The translations under genes and the position numbers were made by a program. A stretch of DNA of 63,903 bases, the filler included, from Raillietiella orientalis (Eukaryota), in the NCBI GenBank assembly GCA_036172245.1. It is 3 parts of 3 records of this genome, joined end to end, with 100 filler letters (N's around TTAATTAATTAA, not from the genome) between each part and the next. Parts side by side here need not be neighbours in the genome. Positions count along the whole stretch, not along the records: positions 44,309 to 63,903 come from JAYWIR010000236.1; 2 more parts are not named here. The stretch is one strand, 5' to 3'. How positions within the stretch are numbered: the stretch's first letter is position 1; every line of letters begins with the position of its first letter. Shown piece by piece: positions 10,893 through 63,903 of this stretch. The notes beneath the pieces were generated by a model. That model searched no databases and was not told the DNA's origin. It was given only the letters and a program-made list of their open reading frames with translations.

Positions 10893-10906
10893 AGCTAGGC
10901 ATTCCA

Positions 10907-22243: not shown

Positions 22244-22343
22244 NNNNNNNNNNNNNNNNNNNNNNNNNNNNNNNNNNNNNNNNNNNNTTAATTAATTAAN
22301 NNNNNNNNNNNNNNNNNNNNNNNNNNNNNNNNNNNNNNNNNNN
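22244..22343. other. Assembly gap with artificial TTAATTAATTAA spacer
   Basis: 44 N + TTAATTAATTAA (stops in all six frames) + 44 N. Confidence 0.98.
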
Positions 22344-25799: not shown

Positions 25800-26090
25800 A
25801 TTTCATACCATTTTCTGGATTGCATCTCTCCCATAGAATTGATGTTTAGCTCTGTTGGGTTACGAATTCCAAGTGCTTCGATTATAGAATCTGCCATAGC
25901 TGTTGTCTCAACGCCCAAAGCTACAGAATATGAAGCGAAAAATTCATAGCTGACTTTATTAAACTGTCTATTTCCTGCTTTCTGAGGCCTTTCATGTCTG
26001 AAGAGTGGGCCTACTGAGAACAATTTCAGTGGCAGATGTTGCAATGACTTATTCGATATTGCGGCTCTCACCATTGGAGCTGTTAATTCT
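25800..26090 (-). pseudogene. hisS: Bacterial histidyl-tRNA synthetase fragment
   Basis: ELTAPMVRAA..LPLKLFSVGPLFRHERPQKAG.RQF..LNINSMG (class II aaRS motif 2, alphaproteobacterial style). Confidence 0.85.
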
Positions 26091-26123
26091 ATATCACGTG
26101 ACCTTTTCTGCTGCTATGCTATT

Positions 26124-26874: not shown

Positions 26875-27589
26875 CTGCTATGCTATTGAAAATATGTGCA
26901 CCTCGTGATGCCATCGCACATGTGCTTATTGCTAGTATTCCATGAAATTTGAGCATTTTTAGGGTTTTTTATATAGAAATTAAAGTTGTTGAGTAGTATT
27001 CAAGTCTATAAGCATTTAATCAGCTTCATGTCGAGAGTGGAAGGAAGGCTTAAAGATAACAGCTGAATTCTCCAAAAAAGCTGATGAAACAATCGTAACA
27101 GACTAGGAGCTTATCTAAAAAATGTTATCATGAAAATTTATATAGCCATTGGCAAAGCAGTTGAGCTGCTAAATGCTTTGAAAGAGGTAAAAGTTGACAA
27201 AGATTGAATTCATATATTTGGTGGTACAGCAGGGTCAGTATTATAAAGCTGAATTGCAATGTGTACGGAAATGCGAAAGTTCTGGAAGATTTTGAAGCGT
27301 TTAAAATACTTACACAAAAAATAACAAACTTTGTTCCAGCTCAGGCATATCTCTGGAATGATTTGATATATTTTCCGCTCACAATACACATTCATCTGCA
27401 GCGGACAGATCACCATTGTAAACATAAATGTCTGCTGATTCTTGCTATTTTCCCCAAGTCTCAAAAGGGGCGGAGTGAATTTGTTTTCTTCTTTTTACAT
27501 TCATACTACATTCTCATTCATACAAAAACTGCAAAACACTTCACTAATGTTAGCTCGAAGACTGCTTCTTTGGATCACTGAAAAAGTGC

Positions 27590-43199: not shown

Positions 43200-43921
43200 C
43201 ACCCAGCGACGGAAAGAATTTCGCGCAGGCGGCGGAGGAAGTGTCGGCCAGCTTCAAGCAGCCCCTCAAGGCTGTCAAGAAGGCGGTGAGGCGGCCGGCG
43301 GAAGCCAAAGGCCCGGAAACACCCGAGTCCGAAGCGGAAGCCGGAAGCGCTCCCTCCATTGCCCTCCCGAAAAGGAAGGCGGGGCGGAAGTCCCAGAACT
43401 CTGGGCGCGTCGTTCCCCCTCAGGTGGAGGAGGAAATGCCCTCAGAGAACGAGGAGGCAATGTCCGCGAGGTCACGCGACTCCTCGGTTGAAAAAAGGGC
43501 CTCGCCAGAGGATACTGGTGTACAACGTCCAGGAACCGACGAGACACCTTTAGCCGAAGCGATGCCCGCCGACCAGGACAACGACCATCCGCCTCCCGAA
43601 CAGGAGACGGCAACAAAATCGCCACCACCATCAACAGAGTGATGCGTGGAATCGCCACTTGCCGGCACTTACGCATAGCCTGTTGGAATGTCAACGGGCT
43701 GCGTGACCAAGGCAAGAGGCGCGGCGTGGCCGACACCCTGCGACCTTTCGACCTGGCTCTTCTCCAGGAGACGCACGCGCTCAGAGGAGAGGACGTCCAG
43801 GAGATCGAGAGGATCACAGGGGGGAGGCTACTTTACCGATTAGTCGGGAATCACTCCCGTGGAGTGGCCTTCCTGCTGAAGCCAGCCGTCGAAAATGCGC
43901 TGCGCAACGTACAGTTCGACG
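43200..43921 (+). mobile_element. Tx1-like host fragment: ORF1 tail + EN start, cut at the QFD motif
   Basis: KAVKKAVRRPA ORF1 tail; TGATG overlap 43640-43644; LRIACWNVNG..LLQETH..NVQFD. Confidence 0.88.
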
Positions 43922-44208
43922 TTTTCACCCGGTCAAGCCGGGGCGTTTATGAAAAAAAACTAACAGTCTTCGCAGTACAAGGCCCCGCTGCGGCCAATAG
44001 TTCTCTGGAGATGTCGGGTGGTCGGTGCTTAGACCTACTTGACACTCCACGGCAACGGATGGGATTGGGGGAAAAAACAAAAAGAAAAATTAAACAAAAA
44101 GTACAAACACTTGTCAATTGGAGGGCCGGGAAGGGATCACTGCCCGTTACGTGGAGCTTCCATCCTTTGCAGGATGCCGACGAGGTCCTGGTACTGATTT
44201 CCCAGTTG
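43922..44208 (-). mobile_element. 3' end of an element inserted at the EN QFD site (inferred family C)
   Basis: Hairpin terminus 43922-43950; ORF2-end sequence similar to 46516-46580; runs into the gap. Confidence 0.8.
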
Positions 44209-44308
44209 NNNNNNNNNNNNNNNNNNNNNNNNNNNNNNNNNNNNNNNNNNNNTTAATTAATTAANNNNNNNNNNNNNNNNNNNNNNNNNNNNNNNNNNNN
44301 NNNNNNNN
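44209..44308. other. Assembly gap with artificial TTAATTAATTAA spacer
   Basis: 44 N + TTAATTAATTAA + 44 N. Confidence 0.98.
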
Positions 44309-44368
44309 CAGGTACCGCAATTGTAGAGTTTTTTATAAATAAACTCCCCTGGCGTACCCGGGTGGCAA
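44309..44368 (+). mobile_element. 3' terminus of a family B-type element inserted at a GFG site
   Basis: AATAAACTCCCCTGGCGTACCCGGGTGGCAA followed by the reverse complement of host LPWGFG. Confidence 0.75.
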
Positions 44369-46298
44369 CGCCGAATCCCCAGGGCAGACGTTGCACAGGG
44401 AACTGTTCGCAGAACTCCCGGACCAAGTCCTTAAATAGGACCCAATACGCGAGAATATGGAGGCTGACGCCTCGCAGGAATTCGCGAAGATGTTCTTTCG
44501 CTCCTTACAGGCGCGTCCAGTCCCCTGGCATACGCCAATCCCTGGATGGCGGTCCCTTGTAGCGCGGGCGCAACTCGAAAACTAACCGGGAATGGTCCGA
44601 CAGCGTCGATCCAAGTGTCCCTCGTTTTCCGACCCGTGTGCACAGGTATTCGTCGAGGAAGACGTGGTGCAGGCTGCTGACCATCCCGCTCATTTCTGTC
44701 AACCAGTTGCGCGCGCGCATGGCGGCGCACAACTCGTTGATCGCGTTAATCTGTGCTCCGGGCTGATCTGCGAGCAGACGGACGTTGAAATCCCTGCTAT
44801 CAGATGCGCCTTTCGCACGTCCGCGTCCACCAGCCATTCGCGCTTCAAGGTTTCCAGTAACGCGTTGCGCTGCTGGTATCCCTGTTTACCGCTAGGAGCG
44901 TACACATTGGTGACGATGAGGTCGATCGATTCGGACGATCTGAGAATCAGTTGGCCGATCCGTCCGTCGTCCCCAAATCGCACGTCCTTGGTTTCGGCGA
45001 GTTTGTCGTCCGGATGACCCTCTTCCCAAGCAGGGGGTGGGTTTTCACGCGCATTCGTCGCGGCAGGAAAATCGATCGAAGGCGTATCGCCTCCGCTGGT
45101 GTTGGCGGGAACGTCAATGTGCTCCAGCGTAACCGTACATTCTCGGAGAGTTTTTATGCGCGACACGGATTGAGCTTTTGTTCCGGCCGCCATCTCCACT
45201 CGTTTCTTCGAGACATGCTTGTCCTTTTTCTCTTTTTTGGCTTTGACTAGCTGCCAGCCCTGTTCTCCCTCTGCGGTTTCGGGAAGATTTTTCTCCGATG
45301 CCGCGCTTGGAGCTTGGGATATTGGCAGCTTTTCTGAGCCAGTTTCCCGGTTTTCCAATTTTTCTTTCCCCGCGGGTTTCCCTTGCGCTTTTTTGGCGGC
45401 CGAGGGAATCGGGGTGCGGCGTTTAGAACACACACGACGGACGTGTCCCTTCTCTGCGCACAAGTGGCATACGATGTTTGGGCACTTTTCTCGGATGTGT
45501 CCGACCGCATCGCAGTAACCGCAATACCGTGGCTCTCCCGCATACCAGAGGTCTACCGATTCTCCCGCGACCTCAAGTTTGTGGGGAAGCTCCGCTTCGT
45601 CTTTTGGTGTTACACGTGCCGCGGCGAGGCCCTTGAAGTGGCATCCGTAGCCCTCATATATTGTAGGCTTCGGCCACAGCGCGTGTACGTCCCCGTATTT
45701 ACTTAATTCCTCTTTCACGGCAGAGCGCGTCATGCGCTTAGATATTCCCGTCAAGTGGACCACTACCGAGTTGTCCATTGGGAAGATCTTACGGCCGTTC
45801 ATGATCAGCGGGGTATTTATTAGGCGATCGGCTAGGCTGATGCTCTTGCACACCAGCTCAAACCGCTGCGCCCCGCTGAGCACGCACAGACCGTCCAGAT
45901 CTTCCTCACGGACATTAGCATTTTGTAGCGCTCTGCTGAAAGAGCGCGCCGTGTTTCCTTCAAACAAAGGGCCTACCTTGTATACAAACGATGGCTTGTA
46001 TTCAGGGGCCCGATAGGCGGCTTTCTCGGTAATGTCCTCCGCACTGGAGGCGACGACCATTTCACTCCAAGTCTTCTTTGGCTGCGAAGACGTTCCAGGA
46101 ACCCATAGTTGCCCCCATAGATGTAGGTCCTGTGGTAGGACTTGCCTTCCCCACAACCACATCCATCGCGGTGTCCTCTGGCAAGGCTGCCATCAAACAC
46201 CGACGACCCACACTTAACACCTGACTACACTAAATAAACTCCGGTTTCTTCCCACACAGGCGCTGGCGGAGCGACCAAAAAACACGTCCACCCATACC
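44369..46298 (-). mobile_element. Family B element, 5' part with an internal deletion (ORF1 fused to mid-EN)
   Basis: CGYCDAVGHIREKC and CHLCAEKGHVRRVC knuckles; EN NVYAPSG and SDH; 5' GGACGTG at 46289-46283. Confidence 0.9.
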
Positions 46299-46310
46299 GG
46301 GTTTCGGCGA

Positions 46311-47515
46311 TTCCACCCGGATACGCCGGGACGTTTATTAAAAACATTTCAACGGTCAATACAGAACGTGGTACAAGGCCCCACTGACGACCACGGAATG
46401 CCGGAACTGCCGGGACACCGGGACGCAGCCCTGTGTGGCTCTCTTCAACAGTGGAGGGGGATGGGGGAAAAAACAAGAATAAAATAAAATAGAAAAACAA
46501 ACCACAAAAAAAAGTTTGGAGGGCCGGGAAGGGATCACAGAAAACTGCTGGGAGCGCCCATCCTTTGCAGGATGCCTTCTAGTTCCATTTTCAGCTTTCC
46601 TAGATGGGGCCATCCGGTAGCTTTCTGCAGGAAGCGCGAAGCATACTCGATGACGTCCCTCACGATGCAGTCTTCATCTTCGCCATCACTCCAAGCCGCC
46701 ACGATACCACGAATGCAGCAAAGTGCTGCCAGGGCTGCGGCTGGACTGAGGGCGTCCCGCACGAAGACAAGACTGAAGATACATTCAACATTGCCACCAT
46801 CCGGTATCCGGAGGGCCGTTTTCAGACGATCCCAAAGAATCTGGACGGCAGGGCATTCAAATAAGAGGTGGGGGAGCGACTCTCGCTCCCCACACCTGGC
46901 ACACGCAGGATTTACTCTTCCCCGCGTCCAGTGGAAGCGGCGCGCGTTAAAGGGTAGACCCCAATGCAGCCACAGAAGCGCCGATTCTTGCGACTCCAGG
47001 GGGAGAATCCTGGATCCAAGTAGAACCGGGGGCCACTTCAGGTCATCCAATCGAATGCCGAGCAGCTCGCCCCATCTTCTTAATCCACGCGGCTGGAGAC
47101 TAGGGGTCGTTGCATCCGTCAACTCTCCCATGGTCCAGCCGCTCATCATCTTCTCTCTGCCTGCGATACGGCAGCGGACTTGCCATTTTGGCTTCCGGCT
47201 TCCGTGAAGCGTTCTTTGGAGGAAGGGCATCGCCGTAACAAGGGGTGTGCCTTCCGCCTACGTGCAACTCTCTGGAAATTCAAGAATTTCACGGAGAGTG
47301 CGGCGGGCGAATAAGCCGACTCGCAGGCAGTTCATGCGGTCTTCGCACCTTTAGTTCTGCTTAGTCCAGGTGCAAGCAGTCTTTTCCAGCCAAGGGGAGG
47401 AGTTGGCAGGGCCACTAACCATCCAGTCGTTCTCCTTTGCCAGGGTTGCCATGCGGCCGAGCATTAGACCGCATCTTCGAATCTTCCGGCCAGGGCACAG
47501 AAGAAACGATGCGAA
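46311..47515 (-). mobile_element. 5'-truncated family B insertion with perfect 12-bp TSD
   Basis: CARCGERESLPHLLFEC (46535-47230); hairpin terminus; GGGTTTCGGCGA at 46299-46310 and 47516-47527. Confidence 0.92.
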
Positions 47516-48353
47516 GGGTTTCGGCGAGGGTGTCAGGAACGAGCGGGCGTACCTCCTGGCGCGCGGTTATTCCCAGCGTCCCGACGTCCGTCGCCTGGCT
47601 GAATTCAAGGCTGAGGCGGAGAAGCAGGCCTGGCAGTCAGGCTCGGCCTGCCTGTTGGATTATCAGGGCCAAGAACGCGTACGCCCAGCCCAGGTAAGCC
47701 GAATCGTGCGGGAGTTTTATTCCTCCTTGTACGCGCCACTAACACCTGAGCGCCATTTCGCGCAGCGCCTGCTGCCGGATGGTGCTCCCGCGCTCAAGGA
47801 GGAGGACCGTTCCAGATTGGCGGAACCGTTCACGATGGCGCAGATCATCTCCGCCATCAACAGGCTCAATAAAAGGAAGGCACCAGGGGAGGACGGCCTG
47901 CCCGCGGAGTGTCACCATCGCTTCGCGCCAGAGCTGGCACCCCTAGTGCTCAGGTCAAGTGCGCTGATCCGCGAACACGGCGAAGTTCCCGCCTCGTTCC
48001 GGTCAGCAAAAGTAAGTGTCCTGCCGAAGTCAGGAGACTTACGCAACATTGGCAACTGGCGTCCCATCTCAGTAGTGAATGCGGACACAAAGTTGTATGC
48101 CAAGTTGTGGGCTGATCGTTTGGGGCGTGTGGCCGCTTCCGTGGTAAGTCCCGAGCAGACCTACGCTGTTCCCGGACGAATCATGGAGGCCAAAATGCTC
48201 CTCGCCAGCTCATGGTGGCACTTGCGACAACGCGTTGCTCAGGACGGTCAAGGGAGCCTCGCGCCCCCCTCTCACCAAGGAGATCGGGCAGAGGGTGGGA
48301 TGGACTCGGCGGGAGCCTTTGCTGTCGCTGTCGATTTGCACAACGCATTCGAT
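47516..48353 (+). mobile_element. Host ORF2 segment bounded exactly by the GFG and AFD target sites
   Basis: GFGEGVRNE...APGEDGLP...WRPISVVN...VAVDLHNAFD. Confidence 0.9.
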
Positions 48354-51300
48354 TTTCACCCGGATTTCGCCGGAGCGTTTATTGGAAAATTAACTTTTAC
48401 AAAGACGTGCGGTGGCTGGACCATTGCTCCAGCCACGCACGAAGAAACACAGAGCCTGTCAAGTCACCGGTTCCCAGACCGATACGGTCCACCACGTTAG
48501 CAGGGGGAAGGGGGGAAAACAAAAAACAAAACATAAAAGAAAAGAAAAGTTGGGAGGGTAAGGGAAGGGATCGCAGTTGCTGGTGGGGCCGTTGCATCCT
48601 TTGCAGGATGCCGGCAAGCTCCTTCTGTATTCCTGGATCCAGGTAGGGCCATCGACACGCCCTCTTCAGAAACTGGGAGGCTGGCTGAAAGGTACGTTGT
48701 CCTCCCGTAGCCTTGCTTCAAGCGGTGACGATCCCGCGTAGGCAGCTCAAAGCTGCTAACGAGCTCGCTGGCCGAAGGGCGTCGGCAACGAAGAGGGCTT
48801 TCAGTGCGTCCCTGGGGTTGCCGCAGGAAATTCCGATGGCCGCTGCAAAGCGAAACCAAAGGGGCCGAAGGGCAACACAATCCAATAGCAAGTGGGGGAG
48901 GGATTCCCGTTCCCCACACCTGACGCAATTGGGGACCACCGCTCCCCATGTCCAGTGGTGTCGGCGGGCGTTGCAGGGGAGTCCCCAGTGCTGCAACAGG
49001 AGAGCCGACTCCTGCCATTTTAAGGGAAGGGCGGAAGTGTTCATGAGCACCGGGGGCCACTTCAGATGTTCAATGGGAACATCGAGCAGCGCGTCCCAGC
49101 GCAGAAGTCCATTGGGAGGCGTACTCGGGGTCGCAGCGTCTGTTAACTGGCCTGTCATCCACTCTCCTATCGTCTTCTGCTTTCTGGAGATTGTTACTGT
49201 AACAACTCACTTCGCCACAGCATTGCTGTCCAGATCTTCCATCAGGGAGGGCAGCGCAGCAGCAAGGGGGGTTCCTCCTGCCCACGTTCTCTTCATTGGA
49301 TCCTCCAGGATCTCGCAGAGCGTTCAACTTCTGTAACCCCCAAACAGGAACCTTCGTTCCTGTTGGGAGCGTTGCATGCCGAACTGTCCCCACGTTCGAA
49401 CGGTTTCCTGCAACCAGGCCCTACCGTTAAACGGGCGACAGGTGAGCAATCCTGGGTTTTTCCGATACAGCGCAGCCACCCACCGTAGCTGGAGTCCGCA
49501 TCGGTTGAGGCGGCGACGGAGTTCAAGAAACGACGTCAGTCTCGTCTTGCCGGTGTCTTGCTGGAAAAGGAGACGTGCAGGGACGCACCAACATGTGCAC
49601 CACAACTCTGAAACGAGTGCCGACAAGCGAAACTGGAGCTGAAGCTCCAGCCGCTCCAGCGTCAGGAGGCCCAGACCACCATCCCGACGAGGAGCGCACA
49701 AGTCCTTTAAGCGGAATCGGGCCCTCCCGTTGCCCCAAATGGCGATACGGAGGAGGTCCTTTGTCCTCGTTTTAATCCTCTCTGTGGGGGGGCAAACAAA
49801 AAGCAGGGGGCAGAGGAGAGGAGCCGCTAACGTGTTCCAAACCGCGGCCCGTTCAGGCAGGAAAAACCTGCCGCCTCGGAACGGGCCGATCGCCGTCTCT
49901 ACTTTTTGAAGGCAGCCGGACCACGCTTCCGCAGGGGAGTAGTCCCCCAACTGCACACCAAGGTACTTGAAGTACCTCACCGTGGGGATCCCTAAACGGA
50001 CCCAGTCCTGCTGCCCTGTCCACGCCGCACAAACTGGCATCACGGACGACTTCGCCCTGTTCACCGTAAGTCCGGTTCCCCGATGCAGCAGGTCGAAGAA
50101 CTCCTCGACCGCCCCAGCCGGGGTAGACATAGGGAGCAGCAGCAGAAGGTCGTCCGCGTATGCTGAAACAGCCGGCGTATCGGCACAGTCGTGCGGCAGG
50201 TGCGCCAGAGTTCCCCTGTACGCTCTCAGTACCAACTCAATGTAGGTACTGAAGAGCAAGGGGCTCAGGATGTCTCCCTGCCGGATCCCACGCCGTGCAC
50301 GGTCTGCCAGCTGAAAGTAACATTGATGAGCGCGTCGCGCCAGCAGGAGCGCAGATAGGCCACTAATGAGGCCGGGAATCCCAATCGTTCCAGAAGCTCC
50401 AGAAGGAGATTCTGGTCGACGCAATCGAATGCTTTTCGCAAGTCGATTGCGACCGCAAGGGCTCTCTCCCCCTCCCGACCATCCAACCCCTTGCCGGCGC
50501 ACGCACCGGAATTCCTTCTGCGCAATAAGCTCCTTTCATGTTGGAGCTCTAGCCAGGTGGAAGCGTGGAACAGGTTCGCCTCCATGCTCCGCCTGGGAAC
50601 AGCATATGTCTGTTCCAGGCTGATGAAGATGTTGGCAACCCGTCTCAGGCGCTCTGCCCAAACCTTAGCCAGCAACTTGGCGTCCGCATTCAATATTGTG
50701 ATAAGACGCCAGTTGTTCATGCTCCTCAGATCTCCTCCCTTAGGTAGGAGCCGCACCTTTGCCGAACGAAACGAGGCGGGAACGTCACCTGTTTCGCGTA
50801 TCAGCAAGGTGAGTTGCTGTACCAGGGTGGTAAGCTCAGCGCGGAAGTTTGATAAAACTCCGCGGGCAGGCCGTCCTCCCCTGGAGCCTTTAGCCTCTTA
50901 AGCTTTCCGATGGCCGAGAGGATCTCGTCCATTGTGAGAGGCTCGTCGAGGGTCTTTCTCTGCTCCTCTCCGATCGCTGGAGCGCCTTTTGGAAGCAGGA
51001 GTCGTGAGACGTTCCTCTCCGGAGGTGCCCTGGCATACAGGGAGGAGTAGTAACTCCGCAGCAGGCCCCGGATTGGGGCAGGTGCCGAGTGCTCCTGGCC
51101 CTGATCGTCCAGTAAGCTGGCCGATCCGGACTGCCAGGCTTGCCTCTCGGCTCCCGCTTTGTATTCCGCCAGCTTGCGGATGTTGGGGGTCCTGGCGTAA
51201 CGACGGACCTGGAAGTAGGCTCGTTTGTTTCGGACCCCGGTCCCAAAACCCGTAGGTAGGCGGTGCAGAGGGAACTGGTCGCAGAACTCTCAGACCGACC

Positions 51301-53897
51301 GCTTGTAGCGGTCCCAATCTTGGAGTGTCCGTAGCCTGAAGCTCCGTATGAACGTGTGGAGATGTTCCGATGCGTCCGGGAGCTTCAGCCAGTCCTCTGG
51401 GAGACGCCACGCTGACGAGGGGGGTCCCCTGTCGCGCGGATGGATCTCGAGGACTAGCGGGCGATGGTCGGACAGCTCGCACGGTAACTTGCCGCGCCTG
51501 CCCACGCGATGGCACAGGTGCTCGTCAAGAAACACGTGGTCAATGCTGTCTTCCATGCCCGGTGCACTGGCGAACAGATTACTGATGTGCACCGCCATGC
51601 ACACCTCGTTGACCAGGGCACGCTCGAGATTCTGCTCATCTGGTTTCAGGCTCACGTTGAAATCGCCTGCAACCAGATGGTCATTCCGCACGCCTGCTTC
51701 GGTCAGCCAGTCTCGCCGGAGGGCAAGGAAAAACTCTTTCCTCTCCCTCCTGTTTATCAGGTCCTTGCCGCTCGGTGCGTACACGTTCGTGAGGATCAGA
51801 TCGATCGAGTCGGACCACCTGAGAGTCAGCTGGCCGACACGACCGTGATCGTCGAACCGCACGCCCCGAGCCGCGGCCTCGACGGCTGACCGATGCAGGT
51901 AGGCGACACCGCAACTTTTCGCTCTCCCACACCTGTACCATAGCCGCCCTCCGGAGATCCGTTCAATCTCTTGCGCTTGCTCTGCAGAGATCACGTGGAT
52001 CTCCTGCAGCAGCGCAAGGTCGTAGGACTCGAGAAGGGCGGCCATGTCTCGTCTCCTGCCGGCGTCTGTCATGCCGTTCACGTTCCAAACGGCGATGCGC
52101 AGACGACGGCGGGAGGAGATTCTCGGCATTACTGCTGGGAAGATTAAGGTGTGGGGGAGCCCTCCTCTTGGGAGGCGGGCGGGATGTCCATGGAGGTTTC
52201 GGCCTTCTTAGGCACCTGAGGCACCTGTTCGGCCTCCACCCCCTTCATCCCCTCCGTGTCCGTGCGTGGGAGTCTCTCGGGCGACGGGTCCCGGGAGTTT
52301 CCCACGCTCATGGCACCCTCGCTTGCGGAAGCCATCTCTTCCCCTTCGACGGGGGAGACGAGCTTCCTTGGCTTTGTAGTCTTACGTCCAGCCTTCTTGC
52401 GCGGTGCCGTGGAAACGGAGGCTGCGCTTCCGGCCTCCTCCTCGGGGTCGGAAGTGGGGTCTCCTGAGGGGAGGCCGGACGCCTTACGGCCTTCTTGCCA
52501 GCCTTGGAGGGTTCTGGCTGCAACGAAGCGGCCAGCTCCTCCGCGGCTCGCGCAAAGGCTACGTCATCGATGGTGGTGTCGATGACGGACGCCGCCGCCG
52601 GCTCGCTACCCTCGCTGTTGACTGTGTCAACTGAGGGGAGGTCGTCGGTAGCGGCGAGTTCTTTCCGGCAGCGTTCGGCAACATCGAGAACGCGTTCGAC
52701 AACGACGCTGCACTCTTCAATTCTCGCGCTACCCTGCTCTTTCTTCTTCTGTTGGTAGGCGATTTTCTTTTCCATCCTCCTCTCCTTCTTTGATTTTTTG
52801 GCCGTTGCCACTTGCCAACCAGTCTCCTGGCCGGCTCCCTCAACTTTTTCGACGTTGGTCGCCGGGGTCTCGGGTGTGGCCTGGGTCTTGGGCGCGGGTG
52901 ACACAGCCTTCGCGGCAGCTTTCGCCGTCAGCCTTTTCTGCAGAAGCCGGGCGCGTTTTTCAAGGTTTCACTTGGAAACCACCCGCACTGCCTCTTTTGG
53001 GCACACCTCCCTCGTGTTGCCCCTTGTGCCGCATACTTGGCACTGCACATTGGCACACCTCTTTTTGAGGTGGCCCGACGTATTGCAGAAGCCACAGTAT
53101 TTCGGCTTCCCCACATACCAGAGGTCGACGGTTTCGCCCTCGACCACCAGTTTGTGGGGAAGAGTGCAGCCCTCCCGAACGGTCACGCGCGCAGCAGTGA
53201 GGCCGTGTTGCAGCCCCGTGTAGTCCTCGGAAGGACTTACTTTCGTCCACTGCGCGTGTACCGTTCCAAACTGTTCCAAAGCGGCGCGAACCTGTTCTTT
53301 GCGCATTCGCGCGGTCACGCCTAACAGGTGGACCACCATGCTGCGGTCCGCCGTAGTGGGGAGTAGCCTGCGCCTCTTCATCACAACGGGGGTTTTAAGC
53401 AGTCGTTGGGCCAGCTCTGCATGTTTGCAGATGACCTCAACGTACTGACCCCCGCTGCGGATGGTCATAGCGCTGAGCTCCTCCAATTTCACATCGAGAG
53501 CGCGCATGCCCTTCGAGAAGGCGCGCGCGCTCTCTAAAGAATATAAATTGCCTACCTTGTAGAACAATGAGGGGTTGTACCCCTCTTCTACATAGGCCGA
53601 CAATTCCGCCGCGGCTGCAAGCGATGGCACCGACACAACGGCGCTCCACGCCCGCGCTGCAGCGGGGACCGATTCTGTGGGGACGGATGCCCTCACCTCC
53701 ATCGCCTCCTAAGATGACGTTGCCGCCGCCCCAAGGCTCTCCATCGCTTCTGGGGGCGGCGTTTCCGCTGCCCAATAGCCATCCCTGGTGGTTGCGTCAG
53801 GCATTGCTGCCTGATCGACCACCGAATCACACGACGCTTGCACTGGGGGAGACTTCCTGGCACGAGGAGCACCGAGAAAACACGTCCACCCTGGAGC
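48354..53897 (-). mobile_element. Full-length (~5.54 kb) family A Tx1-like retrotransposon, frameshifted
   Basis: ORF1 ~53702-52129 (CGFCNTSGHLKKRC); ORF2 from ATG 52129 (EN, RT YADD, CCHC); hairpin 3' end; flanked by GCACAACGCATTCGAT (48338-48353) and GCACAGAGCGTTCGAT (53898-53913). Confidence 0.95.
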
Positions 53898-53913
53898 GCA
53901 CAGAGCGTTCGAT

Positions 53914-54927
53914 TTTCACCAGGATTTCGCCGGGGCGTTTATTGTAAAATAAACTCTTACAAAGACGTGCGGTGGCTAGACCATTGCTCCAGCCACGCAC
54001 GAAGAAACACAGAGCCTGCAGGGTCACCGGTTTGCGGACCGGTACGGTCCACCACGGCAGCATGGGGAAGGGGGAGAAACAAAAAACAAAACAAAAAAAG
54101 AAAAGAAAAGTAGGGAGGGTAAGGGAAGGGATCACAGTTGCTGGTGGGGCCGTTGCATCCTTTGCAGGATGCCGGCCAGCTCCTTCTGTATTCCTGGATC
54201 CAGGTGGGGCCATCGGGACGCCCTCTTCAGAAACTGGGAGGCTGGCTGGATGGCACCCTGGTCGCGTTGTCCTCCCGTAACCTTGCTTCAAGCGGTGACG
54301 ATCCCGCGTAGGAAACACAAAGCTGCTAACGAGGCTGCTGGCCGAAGGGCGTCGGCAACGAAGAGGGCTTTCGTTCCTCTTGGTAGCGTTGCATGCCGAA
54401 CTGTCATCACGTTCGAACGGTTTCCTGCAACCAGGCACTACCGTTAAACAGGCGACAGGTAAGCAATCCTGGGTTTTTCCGATAGAGCGCAGCCACCCTC
54501 CGTAGCTGGAGTCCGCATCGGTTGAAGCGGCGACGGAGTGCAAGAAGCGACGTCAGTCCCGTCTTTGCCGGTGGCTTGCTGGAGAACGAGACGTGCAGGG
54601 ACGCACCAACAGGTGCACCACAACTCTGGAACGAGTGCCGACAAGCGAAACTGGAGCTGAAGCTCCAGCTGCTCCAGCGTCAGGAGGCCCAGACCACCAT
54701 CCCGACGAGGAGCGCACAAGTCCTTTAAGCGGACTCGGGCCCTCCCGTTGCCCCAAAGGGAGATACGGAGGAGGTCCTTTGTCCGCTTTTTAATCCTCTC
54801 TGTGGGGGGGCAAACAAAAAGCAGATGGCGGAGGAAAGGAGCCGCGAACGTGTTCCAAACCGCGGCCCGTTCAGGCAGGAAAAACCTGCCGCCTCGGAAC
54901 GGGCCGATCGCCGTCTCTACTTTTGAC
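53914..54927 (-). mobile_element. Tandem family A copy, 5'-truncated, with internal deletion
   Basis: Highly similar to 48354-48800 joined at ~54371 to the equivalent of 49354-49908. Confidence 0.92.
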
Positions 54928-55442
54928 ACTTGAACACCCAGACTGCGCAGCATGTGGAGACACCGAAACGAGACTTCACGTTTTGACGTGTCCCAGATCG
55001 CTGCATGACTGGCTGATACTGAGAAGGATCAGCGGACTCACGAACACATCCGTAATGGAGATCCTCGCCGGGATGTTTCACGGGGATGGTAATGTTCCCT
55101 GTTACAATCCCAAGGTGAGGACGATCATAGCCCTATTCCTCACCGCCATACTTGTGCGGTGGTGAAAAATGAGAAAAGCAAAGTGAGCTGCACCACCGAT
55201 GGAGATCCTACAACGGTTTCTGAAGGTGGAAATCGGTATTGGGAACTGCGGGAAGTTCCACGTCTGGACGTACCGATTCATCCTGAAGAGGATCGAGGAC
55301 GACGCCCGGGACCATCCAGCTAGATTCCCCACCCGAAAAGCAGAACTCCAGTGCAACCCAAGGACTTCCAAGTGCAAAGTGTTTGTATTGAGCAAATGAG
55401 AGTGTGAATGTAAAAACTGTATTTTTATCGAAAAATAAATTT
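54928..55442 (+). mobile_element. 3' end of a family F element
   Basis: CAACGDTETRLHVLTC; homologous to 27600-27890; AATAAA at ~55434-55439; no hairpin. Confidence 0.78.
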
Positions 55443-56828
55443 ACCGAACCCCTTGTGGGACATGGGGAAATTGCCGAGACGGCTATGGAGCGACTGCATG
55501 CAGCGTGCTTTTGCTCGTCGCAACGCTGCTTTTCACGGCTTTCGTAGCCTTTGCAGAGCCACCTGCGCTGCAGTGGAGCAGTCCGGAACTCGAAAGAAAC
55601 AACGGAACGGGGCAAGAAGTCTTCGCACTGTTGCGTTCTTCCTGCTTTCCTACCTTTCCCTCCAGGGTGTTACGGAGATTCCCTGATTCCTGGCTCGGAG
55701 AGGTGCCTGCGAGTTGGGCTGCGAGGGAGGGCACGGCACTCGTCAAACCCGCGCGGGCCTTTTAATTGGCTTCCCCGTCGCAACTTTCCCCTTTCGTCGC
55801 GTTGCGGACGGGGATGCTTTCTTTTCATGCGCGGATCGCTCGTTGTTTTTTTCGAGTTTTCGCGGACGACGTTTTTTATTTGCGGCTGCGGCTATTCGTG
55901 CAGTGGTCTCTTGAACCCGACAAATTTTTCCTGAAGCTCTTTTTCTTGCAAGTACCCGGCACTTTTTGATTTTCGGCCCGGAATCTGTGCAATAGCGGCA
56001 TCTTGGAGAAAGGCACTCATTAATTCGGTGCTCATCCTTACCGCACTGCTCGCACGCGCGAGTCTGACCTACGAACCACAGGTGAACGACCGTGCCGTTC
56101 ACCTGCAGTTGCTCAGGGACAAAACGCCTGTTCGCGACGGTGATCTGCGCTGAGGCTTGTCCGATTTGAACAGAGGAGAAATCCGTCGAAGTGTTTATAC
56201 ACCTCCACAGGGCGTGCACGGTGGCAAACTTCGCCACCACGCTTACAACATTGCGGTCGGAGATTTCCGGTTCGATGTCGCACCATTGGACGACAAAAGA
56301 GTCGTCCATCGCGGTTGTTAGGACTTCCTTGCCATTGATTGGCAACGGCGTACGGAGAAGGCGCTGCACAAGTGCTGCGTTCTTGCACCGAATCTTCGTA
56401 TATTCCATCCTGCCAGCAGGCATTATGGCAACGAGTACCTCCTCGCAAACGCCGATCCGGACGAGCTCATCATTGAGCTCAGGTCCGATTCTCCCGTTAA
56501 GGGTTCCACTGATCTTATAACAGAGTGCAGGCATGTATCCTCATGACACATATGCCTAAAACTCCGCATCGCAGAGTCCTAGTCTTTGGGAGGTAAAGGC
56601 GGCGTAACTCCTCACCGGGGCAAGGAAACCATTACGGAGGATGCGGCCGCTTCAAGTGCAGCTGAAGTGCATCCAGTGGCTTGCTCCTCCACACTATCCT
56701 GTGTACTGGCCATGTTGCACTAAGCTACTTGGCAGATTGCACAGGAACCCACAAGTGCGAGCGAAAACGCAGGCACAAAGTTGGCCGATCGTTGGCGCGG
56801 GTAGACGCCGAAACACGTCTGTACTGTA
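55443..56828 (-). mobile_element. Family E element, 5' part (divergent ORF1)
   Basis: ORF 55743-56534 with VHLWFVGQTRACEQCGKDEHRINEC; 5' AGACGTGTTT at 56820-56811. Confidence 0.78.
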
Positions 56829-57564
56829 CGAGCGCAAGAGATCGCACGGATCTCGGGTGGGCGGCTGTTGTGGCGTGGCAACACCGCGAAATCAAGCAGC
56901 GTCGCCTTCCGGCTTCGGCCAGCCATCGAGACCGCAATGAAGGACCTTCGGTTCGATGACGCAGGTCGCGTCGGTCAGCTGACTCTCAGCTGGTCCGACT
57001 ATTTCGACCTGGTCGTCAGCAACCTATACGCTCCTAGCGGAAACTCCGCGTTGTGGGCGAAGGCACGAAGGGAGTTCTACCTTGTCTTGAAACGCAATTG
57101 GCTGACCGATGCAGCAGTTCGCAAAGCGCACCTGATCGCAGGTGATTTCAACCTGCGCCTGCTTTCAGGTGCGCCGGATACACTGAACGACCGCGTGAAC
57201 GAGTTGGGCGCACAAATAAACGCGCAACTTGTTGGCCGGGGATACGGCCATGGAACGCAGCATCGATCACGTGTACCTTGACTAGCACCTATGCTCTCGG
57301 GTGGGCAGGTGCGGCAAGGTACAATCCGAGCTGTCAGATCATGGTCGGATCATGTTCGAAGTGCGTTTGCGCGACAAGTGCCTTCCATCGTCAGCGTGGC
57401 GTCTGTCAGGGGACTGGCTAAAGTTCCCGACGCGGCGGAGCACCTCCGCGCGTTTATTCGGAGCTTCAGGATGCAGACACTTCAGGACTGGGACCGCTTC
57501 AAGCGGTCGGTCCAGGAGTTCTGCGACCAGTTCCACCTGCATCGCCTACCTGCGGGATTTGGGG
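56829..57564 (+). mobile_element. Family A-like host EN segment (left part)
   Basis: AQEIARISGGRL..RFDD..NLYAPSG..AGDFN..SDH..TLQDWDRFKRSV..LPAGFG. Confidence 0.9.
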
Positions 57565-60500
57565 TTGTCACCCGGGTACGCCCGAAGCGTTTATTGAGAA
57601 AAACTCTACATAAACGTCGTACGAGGCCCCACTAACGGCCACACAACGCCGGACCTGCCGCAACGCCGGGACGCATCCCATTGTGACGCTCCTCGGCAGT
57701 GGAGGGGGATAATGATCAAAACAAAAAGAAAAATAAAGATGAGGAGAACAAAAAAAAGTTTGGAGGAAGGGAAAGGGATCACAATCCACTAGAAGAAAAA
57801 TCCGTTCCTTCGCAAGATGCCCTCCAGGTCCATCTTCATGCTTCCCAGAAGGGGCCATCTCGCAGCTCTCCGCATGAAGCAGACCGCATACGGGATGACA
57901 TCTTTCGCGTTGGCATCCACTCCTTCGTCGCGAATGTCGCTCCAGGCTGCCACGATGCCCCGAATGCAGCCGAGGGCTGCGAGGGCTGCGGCGGGCTGCA
58001 GGGCGTCGCGCATGAAGAGGGACCGAAGAACGTCTCTGTGCGCGCTGCCCTTTGGGAGCCCGAGGGTCGTTCCGAACCGTTCCCACAGGGGTCGGAGGGC
58101 AGCACAGTCAACAAGTAGGTGGGGGAGCGAATCCCGCTCCCCTCACCTGGCACACTCAGGCCTTACACTTCCCCGCGTCCAGTGGAAGCGGCGCGCGTCG
58201 CAGGGTAGACCCCAGGGCAACAGCAGCAGCGCCGAATCTTGCCACTTCGTTGGAAGAAGCTTGGAGCCAATTAATATTGTGGGCCACTTCATGTCATCCG
58301 TCGGGATGCCGAGCAGCTCGCCCCATCTTCAAAGTTCACACGGGAGGGCACTCGGGGTCGTGGCACCTGCCAGTTTTTCCAAGGTCCAAACGCTGTTCTT
58401 CTTTTCCTTGCCTGCGATTCGGCAAGAGACTTGCCACTTTGGAGTACGGCCGCTGGTTAAAGCCGTTCGTAGGAAGGGCAGGTTCGAATCTAGAGGGGTA
58501 GTCTTCGCTCACGTGCTCCTGGCGGGACACTCCAGACTAGTCCGCAGTGTGCAGCAGGCGTTGGGGCCGGATCGCAGGCGGTTTTATTCCGAAGAAGTCT
58601 GGAGGTTTAGCTTGGCCCACGTCGCAACGGATTCCTCCAGCCAGGCGGAGGATTTGGCGGAGCTGCATACCGTCCAGCCGTTGTCTCTCAACAGGGCTTC
58701 CATGCGCTCAAGGAGAGAGCCGCATCTTCTGACCTTCCTGCCAGAGCACAGAAGGTACTACGCGTGTCATTGCGTCCTGGAGACACGGCTGGCGAGGATA
58801 CTAGCCGGACCTCACCAAGGGGTGCTCCATGAATTCACTGCGATGGCGGTGGTGCGCCATCGCAACTGTATGTCCAGGCGATCCAGCGTCAGGATGCCGA
58901 GACCGCCGTCCCGACGAGGAGCGCATAAGTCATCTAGAGGCACACGTGGCCTCCCGCTGCCCCGAAGGGCGATGTGGAGTAGGTCGTTGGTCCTCTTTTT
59001 TATGTCACGGGGGACGGGGCAAACAAAAAGCAGTGAGCGGAGGATGAAAGCCGCAAACGCGTTCCACACCGCGGCCCGTTCAGGCAGAAGGAACTTGCCT
59101 TCCAGGAACGGGCCGATTGGCAACTCTACATTCTGGAGACTTCCTGACCAGGCTTCTTAGAGGCAGAAGTCCTTCAACGGGACACCCAGGTCCTTCAGGT
59201 ACCTGGCCACGGAAATCCACAAGCTAATGCAGACAGGCCGTCCGACCCACGTCGCACCCACCGGTACGACCGACGACTTCGCCTTGTTTACCCGAAGTCC
59301 AGCCCCACGACTTAGCAGGTCGAAGAAATCCTCGACTGCGGCTGCCGGGGCGGACATGGGCAACATGAGCAGAAGGTCGTCGGCGTATGCTTCTACGGCG
59401 GGAGTGCCGGGGCACAAGCTGGTCAGAACAGCCAAAGTCACCCTGTACGATCTCAGCACCAACTCAAAGTAGGTGCTAAAGAGCAGGGGACTGAGGCAAT
59501 CGCCTTGCCGTATGACACGCCGCACCGGCACGCCGTACACCTGTTGGCTGGAGAAAGTGATGTTAATTATGGCGTTGCGCCAGCAGGAGCGCAGAAAGGA
59601 GAGAAGGTAGGGTGGGAAGCCCATGTGACCCAGAAGCTCCAACAGTAGCTTCTGGTCAACGCAGTCGAACGCCTTATGGAGATCGACCGCGATCGCTATG
59701 GCCTTCTTCCCAGCCCAGGTGTCCATTCGCAGCCCAGCTGGCGGCCCCAAAGTGGGGTTGTCAATCTTACCGCTAGTGTCATTTAGGCAGTGCTGCACAT
59801 GGAACCATGTGCACGCGAAGTACAGGTTGGCATCCATACTTACGCTCTGGAACAGCGTATGTCGGCTCCAGGCTAATTATAGAGTCTGCCACCTGTCCTA
59901 GACGCGAAGCCCACATTCCAGCGACCAGTTAGGCGTCCGTATTCACAATTGTGATCGGACGCAAATTGCCTAAGAATTTAATGTCTCCTCCCTTAGGGAG
60001 GAGCCTCACACGGGCTGACCAAATTGAAGCGGGAACGTCATCTCGGATCAGCCCTTTCAACTGGAGCACCACGGGGGCCAGCTCCGCCGCGAAGCATTGA
60101 AAAAATTCCGCAGGCAGGCCGTCGCCCCCTGGCGCCTCACGCCTCTTGAGCCTTTTAATACCGGGGATAATTTCACCGGTAGAAAAAGGCTCGTCGAGGC
60201 TAACCCTCTCCTCCTCCTCTATTGCTGGTGCTCCGTCCGGAAGCAGGAGCCGCGATGCGTCCCGCTCTAGGGGTGCCCTAGCGTAGAGGGAGGAATACTA
60301 ATGCCGCACAAGGTGCCTGATCGCAATTGGGGCCCATCGCTCCCGGCCCTTGTCGTCCAGCAAGCTGGCCTACCCGGAGTGCCAGGCTTGGCGCTTGGCC
60401 CCGGCTCGATATTCGGCCAGGCGACGGACATTGGTGGTCCTGCGTACTGGCGGGCCTGTAAATAGGCCGTATGGTTCCAAGCCCCTTCTAAAAATCCGGG

Positions 60501-63227
60501 GGACAGGCGGTGCAGGGGGAAATCCTCGCAGAACTCGCATACCGAGGCCTTGAAGAGGTCCCAATCTATGAGACTGCTGAGGGTGACGCCTCTCAGGAAT
60601 TCGCGAAGGTGATCCTTCGCACCTAAGAGCCGCGTCCAGTCCCCAGGCAGCCGCCACGCTTTGGACGGGGGTCCTCTTTCGCGCGGGCAAACCTCGGCGA
60701 TTATCCTGAAATCGTCCGACAGCGTCGACGCAACTTTCACCCGTTTACCGACCCTTAAGCACAGGTCGGCATCCAGGAAGAAATGGTCGATGCTGCGGTC
60801 CATTCACTTCGCATCCGCCAACGAGGTGTGCGTGCGCATGACAGCGCAAAACTCGTTGACCGTGCGTTCTTTTGCTTCGGGCTCACCTGACAGCAGTCGC
60901 AGATTAAAGTCTCCAGCTATCAGGTGTGCCTTTTGTACATTCGTGTCGGCCAGCCATTCGGGGTTAGGGGTTTCCAGCAGCCTGGTACGGTCGCTGTATC
61001 CCTTTTTTCCGCTAAGTGCGTACATTTTCGTGACGACCAGATCGATCGAATCGGACCAGCTGAGAGGCAGCTGACCTACCCAACCGTCGCCATCGAAGCG
61101 TACGCCCTTCACAGCAGCGTCGATGGCCGGCTTTACGGAAAACGCTACCCCACAGGTGTTCCGGGCGCCGCATCGCCAGTACAGCCGACCCCCCGCGATC
61201 GTTTCCATCTCCTGGACGTCTGCCGCAGAGATCACGTCGATCTCATGCAGCAGGGTTAGGTCGAACTCACGCAGGGTGTCGGCCGTATCTCGTCTGTTGC
61301 GTCGTCGCGCAGCCCGCTGACGTTCCAACTGGCCACGCGGATTCGACGGCGACAGGCGAGCCCAGGTGTTATTCCTGGGTAATCGGATCTGCGGCGTCCG
61401 CCACCTGTTGGGGCATGACGTTAGATGGAGAAGGAGAGGGACAGGTGCTGAAGGCACCTGGTCCTCCTCCTCCATAAGTACCGTAGCGTCGAGCTGCTCC
61501 CTATCCGGTGGGGTCGCGCCTACCTGTTGGCCCTCCTCCATAGGGGTGGGCTGTCCAGATTTCGCGAAGGCAAGGAACACCACGCCTCCCTGCTCACCCT
61601 TCTCGATGGAAGTGGCCGACTCGACGACTTCCGCGCGTGGGATTTCCCCATCCGGGATTCCCACGCTGCCGTCGGCTTCCTCCTTCTCCTCCTCGCTCGT
61701 GGAGGGGAGGCGCCTCCTCGGCTTTTGGGACCTGCGTCCGCTCTTCCGGAGGTTGCCTCCGACGAGGAGGATGCACTTCCGGCCCCCAGGTCGCACTCAC
61801 CTGCGGGGGCTTTCTTCGCGGAAACCGGCCTTCGCACGGCCTTGCGCGAGGGGTTCTCACGCTCGACCAGCGTGGCCGCGAGCTCCTCCGCCGCCTGAGC
61901 GAACGCGGCGTCCTCGCTTTCGGCGCTCGCTTCGCGCGGCTCACCCTCTGATCAACCAGTGGGTTCGCCGTCGCGAACCTCGGGCGCGGCGCAAACGGCG
62001 AGGGGAGGCTCGTCGCCCCGGGTGGCAACCTCGGGAACGGCAACCCGTTCGATTGCCAGCGTGCACTCGCGAAGAGTTTTCGAGCGCGGACCGGATTTTT
62101 TCGGTTACGCGCTCTTTTCTTTCTTCGCTCTCGCAGGTTCCACGGGGGGAACTTTTTTCTCCTTCCTGGCCTTAACCAGCTTTCATCCTTCTTCCTCTCT
62201 TGCGTCTTCAGTGGGGTTTTCCTCCGACGCCTGGTTGGGTGGAACAGGAGATGGCGGCTGGGGCCGGCCAGTATCGCGCACTGGTCTTTCCTCCAGCTTG
62301 GCTCCTTTGCCCTGTGCCTTTCTGGCTGCAGGGGGAACCGGGGAGGGGCGTTTTAAACACACGCGCCGAACGTGGCCGCGCTTCCCGCACAGGTGCTAAT
62401 GGATGTTTGCACATCGTCTGCGAACGTGTGCTACGGCATCTTTGTAGCCGCAATACCATGGCTTCCCCACGTACCAGAGGTCGACCGATTCTCTGGCAAC
62501 CTCCAGCTTGTGCGGGAGCCCACAATCCTCATTGACGGTGACTCGCGCCGCAGTCTGGCCCCCGGAAAGGTTATTGTAGCCTTCAAGGATCGTTGGTTTA
62601 GGCCACAGCGCGTGCACATCGCCGTATTCTTTTAATGCCTCACTCACTGCAGAGCGAGACATGCGGTTCTTGATTCCGGTTAAATACACCACAACGGAGC
62701 GGTCCATTGTAACCGTATAGATCTTGTGGCCTTCTACCGTCAGTGGGTTATTTATCAAGCGCTGTGTCGAAGTGATGTCTTTGCACACCACCTCAACTTG
62801 GTGACCCCTGCTGAGGACGGAGAGGCCGTCAAGATCTTCTTGATTAACAGTCGCTGACTGCAGCGCCCTCGTTAAGGCACGTGCAGTCTTCCAGTCGAAC
62901 AGGTTGCCTATGTTGTATACAAGCGATGGCTTCTACCCGACGGCCTTGTACGTTGCTTGTTCAGCCAAGGTTTACGCGCTAGGCGCGAAAACCATGGCGC
63001 TTAAGCTCCTCGTCTTGGGCGACCAGGGCGATTCCAGGGAGGATGCCCCTGATTCTATAGTTCTCGGGGGGGGTTAGCCTCTTCCACTCCTACCTCCATC
63101 GTGGTGTCCTCTGGCAGCGATGCCATCAAAAACAAACGATGTGAAACAGCACACACTTAACCAAAGAAAACCGCTTTCCAGTACTCGTACTTAGAGCGCC
63201 GGAAGAACACGTCCACTCTCGGAAAGA
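57565..63227 (-). mobile_element. Full-length (~5.66 kb) family B Tx1-like retrotransposon nested in the family A-like host
   Basis: ORF1 from ATG ~63126, EN, RT (DLHKAFD, YADD), CCHC and hairpin end; flanked by GGGATTTGGGG (57554-57564) and GGGAGTTGGGG (63228-63238); host resumes collinearly. Confidence 0.93.
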
Positions 63228-63903
63228 GGGAGTTGGGGAGAGGCCAAGTAACGAAAGGTGCTATCTTCAGGCCCGACGTTACGCAAGAACCCCCGACATG
63301 CGCAGGTTAGCGAAATACCGAGCGAGAGCCGAGAGGCATGCCTGGAAATCCGGGTTGGCCAGCTTGCTGGGTGACCAGCGTCTGGAGCACTCGGTTCCGG
63401 CTCAGAAACGCAGGATAGTGAGGAAATTTTACTGTTCCCTGTACGTCACTTCGCCTTTGGAGCAGGATATTTTACGACTCCTGCTTCCGGAAGGTGCTCC
63501 AGCGATTGGGGAGGTGGAGAAAAGGAAACTCGACGAGCCTTTCACGATGGGCGAGATCATCTCGGCCATCGGAAAGCTCAAAAGGCGAACGGTTCCAGGG
63601 GAGGAAGGATTGCCTGCGGACTTTTATCAAACTTTCGCATCAGACGTTACCCCCTTGGTACATCAGCTCACCTTGCTGATCCGCGAAACAGGTGACGTTC
63701 CCACCTCGTTTCGTTCGGCAAAGGTGCGTCTCCTCCATAATGGAGGAGACCTTAGGAGCATGAACATCTGACGTCCTATCACAATAGTGAATGCGGACGC
63801 CAAGTTGCCAGCCAAGCTGTAAGCAGAGCGCCTGGGACGGTTCGCCAGCATCTTCATCAACTCGGAACAGACATATGCTGTTCCCGGGCGAAGTATGGAA
63901 GCG
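63228..63903 (+). mobile_element. Family A-like host ORF2 (right part, linker + RT start)
   Basis: RRLAKYRA...PGEEGLPADFYQ...SFRSAKVRLL; continues 56829-57564. Confidence 0.9.

Follow-up and report, generated by a model that had tools for sequence, protein, structure and literature searches.

Introduction

Site-specific long interspersed elements (LINEs) are known for ribosomal DNA (rDNA), small nuclear RNA and transfer RNA (tRNA) genes, telomeres, microsatellites, and one DNA transposon. Here we analyse a stretch of 63,903 nucleotides from Raillietiella orientalis (GCA_036172245.1; three parts joined end to end, hereafter the window) and describe in it a LINE family, family A, that is found repeatedly at one coding motif of other LINEs. 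It is likely that family A is a sequence-specific LINE of the L1 superfamily with an apurinic/apyrimidinic endonuclease (APE)-type enzyme, and that its target is the DNA for Ala-Phe-Asp (AFD) in motif A (D-L-x-x-A-F-D) of the reverse transcriptase (RT) of related LINEs.

In excerpts of PMC6719617, the targeting of Tx1D by Tx1 and of Tourist by Tourist is given as a case of transposable elements that target transposable elements. In the excerpted text of PMC4640811 transposons are among the targets of sequence-specific LINEs, these LINEs are compared with homing endonuclease genes, and the Tx1 and R1 clades are given as the two APE-encoding groups that, besides early-branched elements, hold most of the reported target-specific families. 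Tx1L and Tx2L of Xenopus laevis (Tx1 clade), as far as the excerpts describe them, resemble family A in being LINEs with an APE endonuclease and one specific site inside another transposable element; this is a likeness of features. The target of Tx1L is the DNA transposon Tx1D, whereas that of family A is a coding motif of sibling LINEs, within a system of several sites and several lineages. R1 is like family A in being of the APE type and in having a functionally conserved multicopy target, exact junctions, a fixed orientation, and a target-site duplication of similar length (14 bp in R1), but it is directed to 28S rDNA, and the endonuclease of family A matches that of L1.

Celine, a centromeric LINE of poplar, is often found in other elements, with unique duplications that average 15 bp (PMC11288735, in excerpt). 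According to excerpted text, Zepp targets existing copies and forms tandem arrays of 3′ ends (PMC8226300), and ZeppL clusters mark putative centromeres of Chlamydomonas (PMC9940879). By description, these green algal elements are like the LINEs of the window in their tandems of 3′ parts and LINE-only islands, but in the window the sites are nucleotide-defined inside open reading frame (ORF) 2, antisense, cross-family, and without poly(A). Homing endonuclease genes, group I and group II introns, and inteins are selfish elements that reside in conserved active-site codons, where the site is protected by functional constraint. They are a conceptual parallel to family A, which differs in the use of target-primed reverse transcription, in the lack of splicing, and in that the "host gene" is itself selfish.

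A literature search found no LINE that targets a coding motif of other LINEs, with most subscription journals and Repbase Reports lying outside its coverage. If a LINE does recognize the sequence that codes for the active site of other LINEs, this would add a new class to the known targets. Conflict between transposons would then have a clean natural example, in which the victim cannot freely alter the site without harming its own RT, and the growth of LINE-only islands without harm to host genes would be explained. Three related, distinct targets would form a natural series on how specificity changes in APE-type endonucleases or in RNA-target pairing, which bears on the retargeting of retrotransposon machinery.

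Junctions of family A with other LINEs

The copies of family A, a relative (A2), and three resident LINEs (hosts H1, H2, and H3) are located as follows.

48353-53897 (-): full-length family A LINE, 5545 bp, with ORF1, APE endonuclease, RT, and a zf-RVT-like C-terminal domain (Pfam and BLAST)
205-2639 (+): family A copy 1, 5′-truncated, 87.6% identical to the full copy over 2429 nt; its 3′ end ...GTGGAAA adjoins H1
53913-54929 (-): family A copy 2, 5′-truncated, with an internal deletion of ~550 bp; head-to-tail with the full copy and 89.7-94.6% identical to it
10907-11070 (-): family A 3′ fragment, 164 bp, 5′-truncated, flanked by 14-bp duplications at 10893-10906 and 11071-11084
9739-10892 (-): A2, relative of A at 75% identity (5′ part); adjoins the duplicated AFD segment at its 5′ end, in tandem with the A fragment
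47512-48352 (+): host LINE H3, a retained piece from the GFG codons to exactly the AFD codons, with an insertion at both ends
2640-6232 (-): host LINE H1, with ORF1, endonuclease, and RT up to IDLHKAFD (2639-2659), hit antisense by copy 1
11071-11225 (+): host LINE H2, a third independent host; downstream RT half starting (SK*)AFDCVNQDLSLEILERL, and the copy of the target on the upstream side

All four A 3′ ends in the window, read in element orientation, terminate as ...AATAMACGCY-YYGGCGAAAYC-NNN-GTGRAAW without poly(A), and each is followed by the octamer TCGAAYGC, the reverse complement of Ala-Phe-Asp codons, or by TGGAATGC at the 164-bp fragment. Together with the 5′ junction of A2, these ends lie on GCRTTCGA or on a regenerated copy of it, which is degenerate (GCATTCCA) at the A fragment. 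Past the octamer, the flank of the full copy (GTTGTGCAAATCGAC) completes antisense VDLHNAFD of H3 (+) and that of copy 1 (TTTATGAAGATCAAT) completes antisense IDLHKAFD of H1 (-), while copy 2 and the 164-bp fragment are followed by the 5′ end of another A-lineage element, which gives head-to-tail tandems. A sequence-only reading of this DNA had placed the full-length copy against VDLHNAFD and had seen the same register at IDLHKAFD in a different host, and both placements hold: a plus-strand ORF (47370-48500) reads ...AVAVDLHNAFD at 48333-48353 and continues directly into the reverse complement of the A 3′ end. A search of protein databases with residues 300-381 of the junction-spanning ORF 47355-48497 gave nothing at E up to 10.

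H1 and H3 are 70% identical over 373 nt, against 85-92% among the A copies, and the two are therefore separate insertions into different LINE families and not a single composite or a 3′ transduction, so that the independence of these events, also claimed in the earlier reading, is upheld. In H1 the host similarity runs on through the endonuclease and ORF1, over 3.2 kb. H2 has an RT that is 56% identical to that of A (E 5e-11), and it is 68.6% identical to another LINE, element E, only. Its upstream side reads AFDCVNQDL, and the right-hand duplicate (11071-11084) runs on as CTGCGTGAATCAGGATCTC..., reading AFDCVNQDLSLEILERL. In all three hosts, which belong to different families, the break falls at the same nucleotide, GCRTTCGA^, and A is always antisense; this covers five A-lineage insertions and bears out the proposal of repeated use, by family A, of the AFD codons in RT motif A. 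No A 3′ end was found in the window at a TTCGA outside AFD codons.

Target-site duplications and tandem copies

The full copy lies between two 16-mers, GCACAACGCATTCGAT at 48338-48353 and GCACAGAGCGTTCGAT at 53898-53913, which are identical at 13/16 positions, as first read. The first 15 nt of these are the target-site duplication (12/15 identical) and the 16th, a T, is the last base of each element, so that the element proper spans 48353-53897. The range of 48338-53943 that the sequence-only reading had given thus contained the element but needed correction at both coordinates, position 53943 being 31 nt into copy 2. The two duplicates are as follows.

48338-48352: left target-site duplication of the full copy, GCACAACGCATTCGA, made up of H3 sequence for (L)HNAF plus the first two positions of the Asp codon
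53898-53912: right target-site duplication and regenerated target, GCACAGAGCGTTCGA, separating the full copy (5′ end) from copy 2 (3′ end)

Both carry the His codon of H3, and the middle repeat carries its GCACA. When random pairs of 15-mers were compared with an offset of ±3 nt in 20,000 trials, at least 11/15 matches occurred in 0.12% and at least 12/15 in 0.03%. Both junctions are present in two A copies, the full copy and the 164-bp fragment, and the duplications are 14-15 bp long. At the fragment the flanks AGCTAGGCATTCCA (10893-10906) and AGCTAGGCATTCGA (11071-11084) are identical at 13 of 14 positions. Both of these H2 duplicates contain AGCTAG, which is part of neither A nor A2, and the repeated segment is therefore duplicated host sequence, i.e., a target-site duplication.

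The boundary between host and insert was also seen in uninterrupted relatives of H3. Among public runs, only X1 had words in common with the 3′ kb of A (share 0.13); it was placed on 47300-55200 and consists of short contigs of related LINE copies. Two of its contigs, 95% and 84% like H3, match up to position 48352 and then continue as CTGCGTCGACCAGGATCT, reading (AFD)CVDQDL. They place the boundary at 48352|48353 and show uninterrupted paralogues of H3.

Two head-to-tail tandems sit on a regenerated AFD site (53898-53912 and 10893-10906). The first of these confirms the second copy that the earlier reading had put at the regenerated site. With a further tandem at 46295-46309, the LINEs of the window form nested tandem arrays of the kind seen in Zepp.

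Copies 1 and 2 meet unrelated LINE fragments of opposite orientation head-to-head, at 205/206 and 54929/54930. The J-like ORF1 fragment beside copy 1 (19-206) is 82% identical to 56306-56493, and the C-terminal domain of LINE N beside copy 2 begins ...EHPDCAACGD. Head-to-head 5′ ends of this kind could possibly result from deletion at insertion or from two different RNAs priming from both nicks. N was considered as a candidate for the missing 3′ part of H3; a query with the A C-terminus failed to detect N, and in the RT the identity of H3 to A is 52%.

Anatomy and classification of family A

The 5′ end of family A was set by comparison with the 5′ ends of the related elements B and D described below, and the 3′ untranslated region (UTR) of the full copy terminates ...AATAAACGCTCCGGCGAAATCCGGGTGAAAA without poly(A). 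ORF1 has an RRM-like region and CCHC knuckles, with CX2CX4HX4C readable in translation; nothing in Pfam matched it, and its look-alikes in a protein atlas are metazoan CCHC proteins (score 0.95). The endonuclease matches Exo_endo_phos (PF03372, E 2.4e-13) on 51293-52207(-), and among solved structures it has a full-length match to the human L1 endonuclease (1vyb, E 3.4e-6). Among 50 solved-structure matches (E up to 1) L1 endonucleases and cellular APE/ExoIII enzymes were present and the R1Bm and TRAS1 endonucleases were absent, and by its endonuclease family A would not be placed in the R1 clade. Both RT pieces match RVT_1 (PF00078, E 4.8e-9 and 1.9e-8). The RT aligns to human L1 ORF2p (8c8j, E 9.4e-11); its DLRKAFD stands against IDAEKAFD, residues 600-606, where D600 of the human motif is a catalytic aspartate. 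The C-terminus scores 22.5 bits against zf-RVT (PF13966), under the cut-off of 27.5. These matches to the endonuclease and to a LINE-type RT motif A identify family A as an APE-type retrotransposon without long terminal repeats (non-LTR), of the L1 superfamily.

In the full copy ORF2 is split over several frames, and this copy is full-length yet defective. A search of protein databases with the A RT returned 9 proteins only, at 25-31% identity and among longer proteins, with no close relatives. A scan of metagenomes with a degenerate A 3′-end motif gave three loci, all of them chance matches in bacterial-looking coding sequence that is otherwise dissimilar to the window.

Occupancy of the AFD site

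GCRTTCGA occurs nine times in the window, at six distinct RT sites, one regenerated copy, and two non-RT sites; three of them precede an A 3′ end, one forms the upstream duplicate at H2, and five are unoccupied. The shorter TTCGA occurs 65 times in the two LINE islands, counting both strands, and only six of these are distinct RT AFD sites, so that three AFD hosts would be expected about 1 time in 1000 even for an element limited to the TTCGA of the islands.

Hit sites have the codons GCA/GCG TTC GA. Family A carries its own target:

50424-50444 (-): unhit DLRKAFD codons of family A itself, with GCATTCGAT core; likewise in copy 1, at 527-547 (+)

The unhit RT sites comprise A itself (GCA TTC GAT, in two copies), D (GCG TTC GAC), E (GCG TTT GAC), and a distant LINE at 29434 (GCT TTC GAC). 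The 8-nt core is identical to that of hit sites in three of the five (the two GCATTCGA of A and GCGTTCGA of D) and differs in E (GCGTTTGA) and in the distant LINE (GCTTTCGA). The sequence-only reading had further held that hosts can escape only through synonymous change, and had called for a comparison of codons in hit and unhit elements, A included. That comparison could be made, but it gave no signal of escape, as three of five unhit sites keep the core and A retains its own target; five unhit sites are in any case far too small a sample for testing escape. Within the window the targeting of AFD by family A is thus well supported, while the idea of escape is not.

Related lineages at the GFG and QFD sites

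Two further positions in ORF2 are recurrent targets, likewise hit antisense: GFG, between the endonuclease and the RT, and QFD, in the endonuclease. The elements concerned are listed below.

57565-63223 (-): full-length sister LINE D, inserted at the GFG codons of K (56814-57564) and M (63239-63903); duplications at 57550-57564 and 63224-63238
46310-47511 (-): sister LINE G, 5′-truncated, 70.6% identical to D, at the GFG codons of H3; duplications at 46295-46309 and 47512-47526
44369-46294 (-): element B; its 5′ end adjoins the left G duplicate (46295-46309), in tandem
44309-44368 (+): 3′ end of element S, the rest under an N run; adjoins antisense ...RLPWGFG codons of B (GFG junction 44369-44378)
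43922-44208 (-): 3′ end of element C; adjoins antisense ...NVQFD codons (ACAGTTCGACG, 43911-43921) in the endonuclease of F
43208-43921 (+): host F, endonuclease ...NVQFD, hit by C

The GFG site, GGNTTYGGSG^, is hit antisense in three hosts, by D in K/M, by G in H3, and by S in B. An A-like host on the plus strand is divided by D into two parts, K (...FHLHRLPAGFG) and M (...GERPSNERCYL), and the duplications of D, CTGCGGGATTTGGGG and AAGAGGGAGTTGGGG, are identical at 11/15 positions. Those of G, TACCGGGTTTCGGCG and CGAAGGGTTTCGGCG, are also 11/15 identical, with 11 contiguous identical nt (GGGTTTCGGCG), and the right copy continues as GFGEGVRNERAYL of H3. Two different lineages have thus each hit the single resident LINE H3, and each at a specific site of its own. 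A second piece of endonuclease in D (60807-61796) had no match among solved structures. At the QFD site, a second ACAGTTCGACG is found at 6235-6245, where the 5′ end of H1 adjoins the QFD codons in the endonuclease of E (QFD-EKSRVGQL). Exact ACAGTTCGACG occurs twice in the window, both times at a junction, and with up to one mismatch four occurrences were observed against 0.86 expected; unhit homologues of the QFD site differ from the hit ones, e.g., CGGTTCGAYG. The 3′ flank expected is CGCCRAAWCC for the D/G/S/B lineage and CGTCGAACTGT for the C/H1 lineage. The third host H2, and the presence in the window of no fewer than three recurrent sites at which LINEs lie in LINEs, go beyond what the sequence-only reading had described.

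Related elements share a 3′ signature of AATAAACG, a CCGG-type hairpin, and GGGTGNNAW, and they start at the 5′ end with GTGGACGTGTTYTT 7-8 nt from the end. In the 3′ UTRs of all lineages AATAAACG is followed by a palindromic hairpin (CCGG/CCCGG-loop-CCGG/CCGGG) 7-9 nt before the terminus, and in that of family A (region 48353-48480) a 9-bp stem, GTGGCTGGA...TCCAGCCAC, is found at 48406-48441. The hairpin region is probably the structure recognized by the RT. A consensus fold of eight 3′ UTR ends, some of them short, was weak (-4.9 kcal/mol, 11 pairs), with uninformative covariation.

The 3′ end of element P (26123-26900) lies at 26123, terminates ...CCCGGGTGATAA, and is set in AT-rich non-LINE DNA, so that LINE flanks are not simply the sole context available. 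P adjoins an ORF at 25466-26113 (-) with weak Pfam matches to class II tRNA synthetase. In a tree of six rows over 162 amino acids of the C-terminus the two A copies pair with support of 99/98, and E and P pair with 100/100.

In element B a single open frame of 497 codons (44702-46192, minus strand) holds ORF1 (RRM/CCHC) together with a lysine-rich linker and some of the endonuclease, which suggests a single fused ORF in some lineages, or a deletion. The 3′ end of E together with ~155 nt of antisense A2-like ORF1-linker is present at 9352-9893 and again, in inverted orientation, at 13379-13921 (identity uniformly 87.3%); a duplicated composite and a fourth specific site are both conceivable here. 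An antisense LINE-in-LINE junction was seen once between the 5′ end of J (-) and the endonuclease of K (+), at ...VRAQEIARISG (56790-56830).

Proposed mechanism and alternative explanations

As read from the junctions, the sense strand of a resident LINE is broken after GCRTTCGA, between the second and third base of the Asp codon, and the part of A joined at this break is its exact 3′ terminus (...CCGGGTGAAAA), without poly(A), so that A is always antisense to the host. The 14-15 bp left of the break are duplicated on both sides of the insert, so that the target is regenerated and later insertions there give head-to-tail tandems. Target-primed reverse transcription is established for R1, Tx1L, and L1, and the anatomy of family A (exact 3′ terminus, fixed orientation, 14-15 bp duplication, 5′ truncation, and tandems) fits such a process. 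By analogy with these three elements, the element's own endonuclease would make a sequence-specific first nick, the conserved AATAAACG and the CCGG-loop-CCGG hairpin just before the terminus would serve as the entry site for the RT, and a staggered second nick 14-15 bp away would give rise to the duplication. Pairing of the nicked target with read-through of the 3′ flank (UCGAAYGC...) may be of help, and specificity may reside in the endonuclease or in the pairing of RNA and target.

Several observations weigh against specific targeting of AFD by family A. The evidence comes from one 64-kb window, with five A-lineage insertions in three hosts, and the duplication around the full copy has three mismatches in 15. 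The five unoccupied GCRTTCGA are the two RT sites of A itself, the RT site of D, and two non-RT sites. ORF2 is intact in none of the A copies of the window, owing to frame changes, so that current activity is unproven, and the X1 matches listed contained no usable family A flanks. The expected continuation of the host and a third duplicate were looked for in the window on the 5′ side of copies 1 and 2 and were absent; the 5′ side of copy 1 adjoins a J-like ORF1 fragment and that of copy 2 the C-terminal part of the plus-strand LINE N, and these sides require deletions or other events. Finally, G and D, which have the GFG site in common, were not resolved as sisters in the C-terminal tree.

The last of these points is in favour of a different source of specificity, in which the endonuclease is only loosely specific (~TTCG-purine), the site is chosen by pairing of the nicked target with read-through RNA that carries the previous duplication, and specificity is inherited via the flank. 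In R1Bm, read-through pairing helps to make initiation precise. A duplicate of the target necessarily comes after each element copy, and a TTYGR core beside the nick is common to all three sites (GCATTCGA^, GGTTTCGGCG^, and CAGTTCGACG^). On the other hand, the termini of the elements fall at one constant nucleotide ahead of the duplicate, as they should when the RT starts at a defined 3′ structure, and A and its 75%-identical relative A2 keep the same site, which specificity encoded in the protein fits equally well. We consider RNA guidance of this kind unlikely, though the strongest of the alternatives.

It is more doubtful still that there is no real specificity, i.e., that insertion is broad or follows a short motif, that copies survive only in dead LINEs, and that the AFD position is coincidental. 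LINE islands dominate the window, and GCRTTCGA is nearly confined to RT genes here, which makes an 8-bp preference indistinguishable from targeting of the RT motif. Five events in three hosts, however, share nucleotide and orientation, no A 3′ end lies at any non-AFD site among the 65 island TTCGA, and two sister lineages are equally precise at other sites. That the junctions are copies of one ancestral composite, spread by segmental duplication, 3′ transduction, gene conversion, or recombination, is very improbable: the E composite does occur twice at uniform identity, but the H1 and H3 flanks are 70% identical over hundreds of nt next to A copies that are 87.6% identical, H2 belongs to a third family, and target-site duplications with exact termini mark retrotransposition and not recombination.

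LINE islands of the window

Family A, as a site-specific LINE, appears to be one of a guild in which AFD, GFG, and QFD lineages build nested LINE islands at 1-12 kb and 42-64 kb. It is conceivable, and we suggest it tentatively, that sibling L1-like lineages home into each other in a form of LINE-on-LINE hyperparasitism, each nicking the sense strand of a different constrained motif in ORF2, inserting antisense, disabling the resident, and regenerating its own target. If this were true, a whole superfamily would be confined to nested islands of its own making, with conservation of the target (which the enzyme of the victim needs) pitted against escape.

The islands coincide with GC-rich blocks (57-62% GC, at ~1-12 kb and 42-64 kb of the 63.9-kb window) that consist nearly entirely of related non-LTR retrotransposons, and in a tblastn search with ORF pieces of the full A copy, segments of LINE protein turned up all across the two blocks, on either strand. 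Among 56 long ORFs of the window Pfam gave RVT_1 in seven, Exo_endo_phos in two, and zf-RVT weakly in two. The middle is AT-richer (37-50% GC) and holds ordinary-looking gene fragments, with weak Pfam matches to class II tRNA synthetase and pseudouridine synthase. Four 44-nt N runs occur in two pairs (22244-22343 and 44209-44308), the second of which conceals how B and C are linked, as well as the body of element S. The 119 bp right before the first pair (22122-22240) recur in inverted orientation at 13249-13367 with 100% identity, and this has the look of an artefact of assembly or masking.

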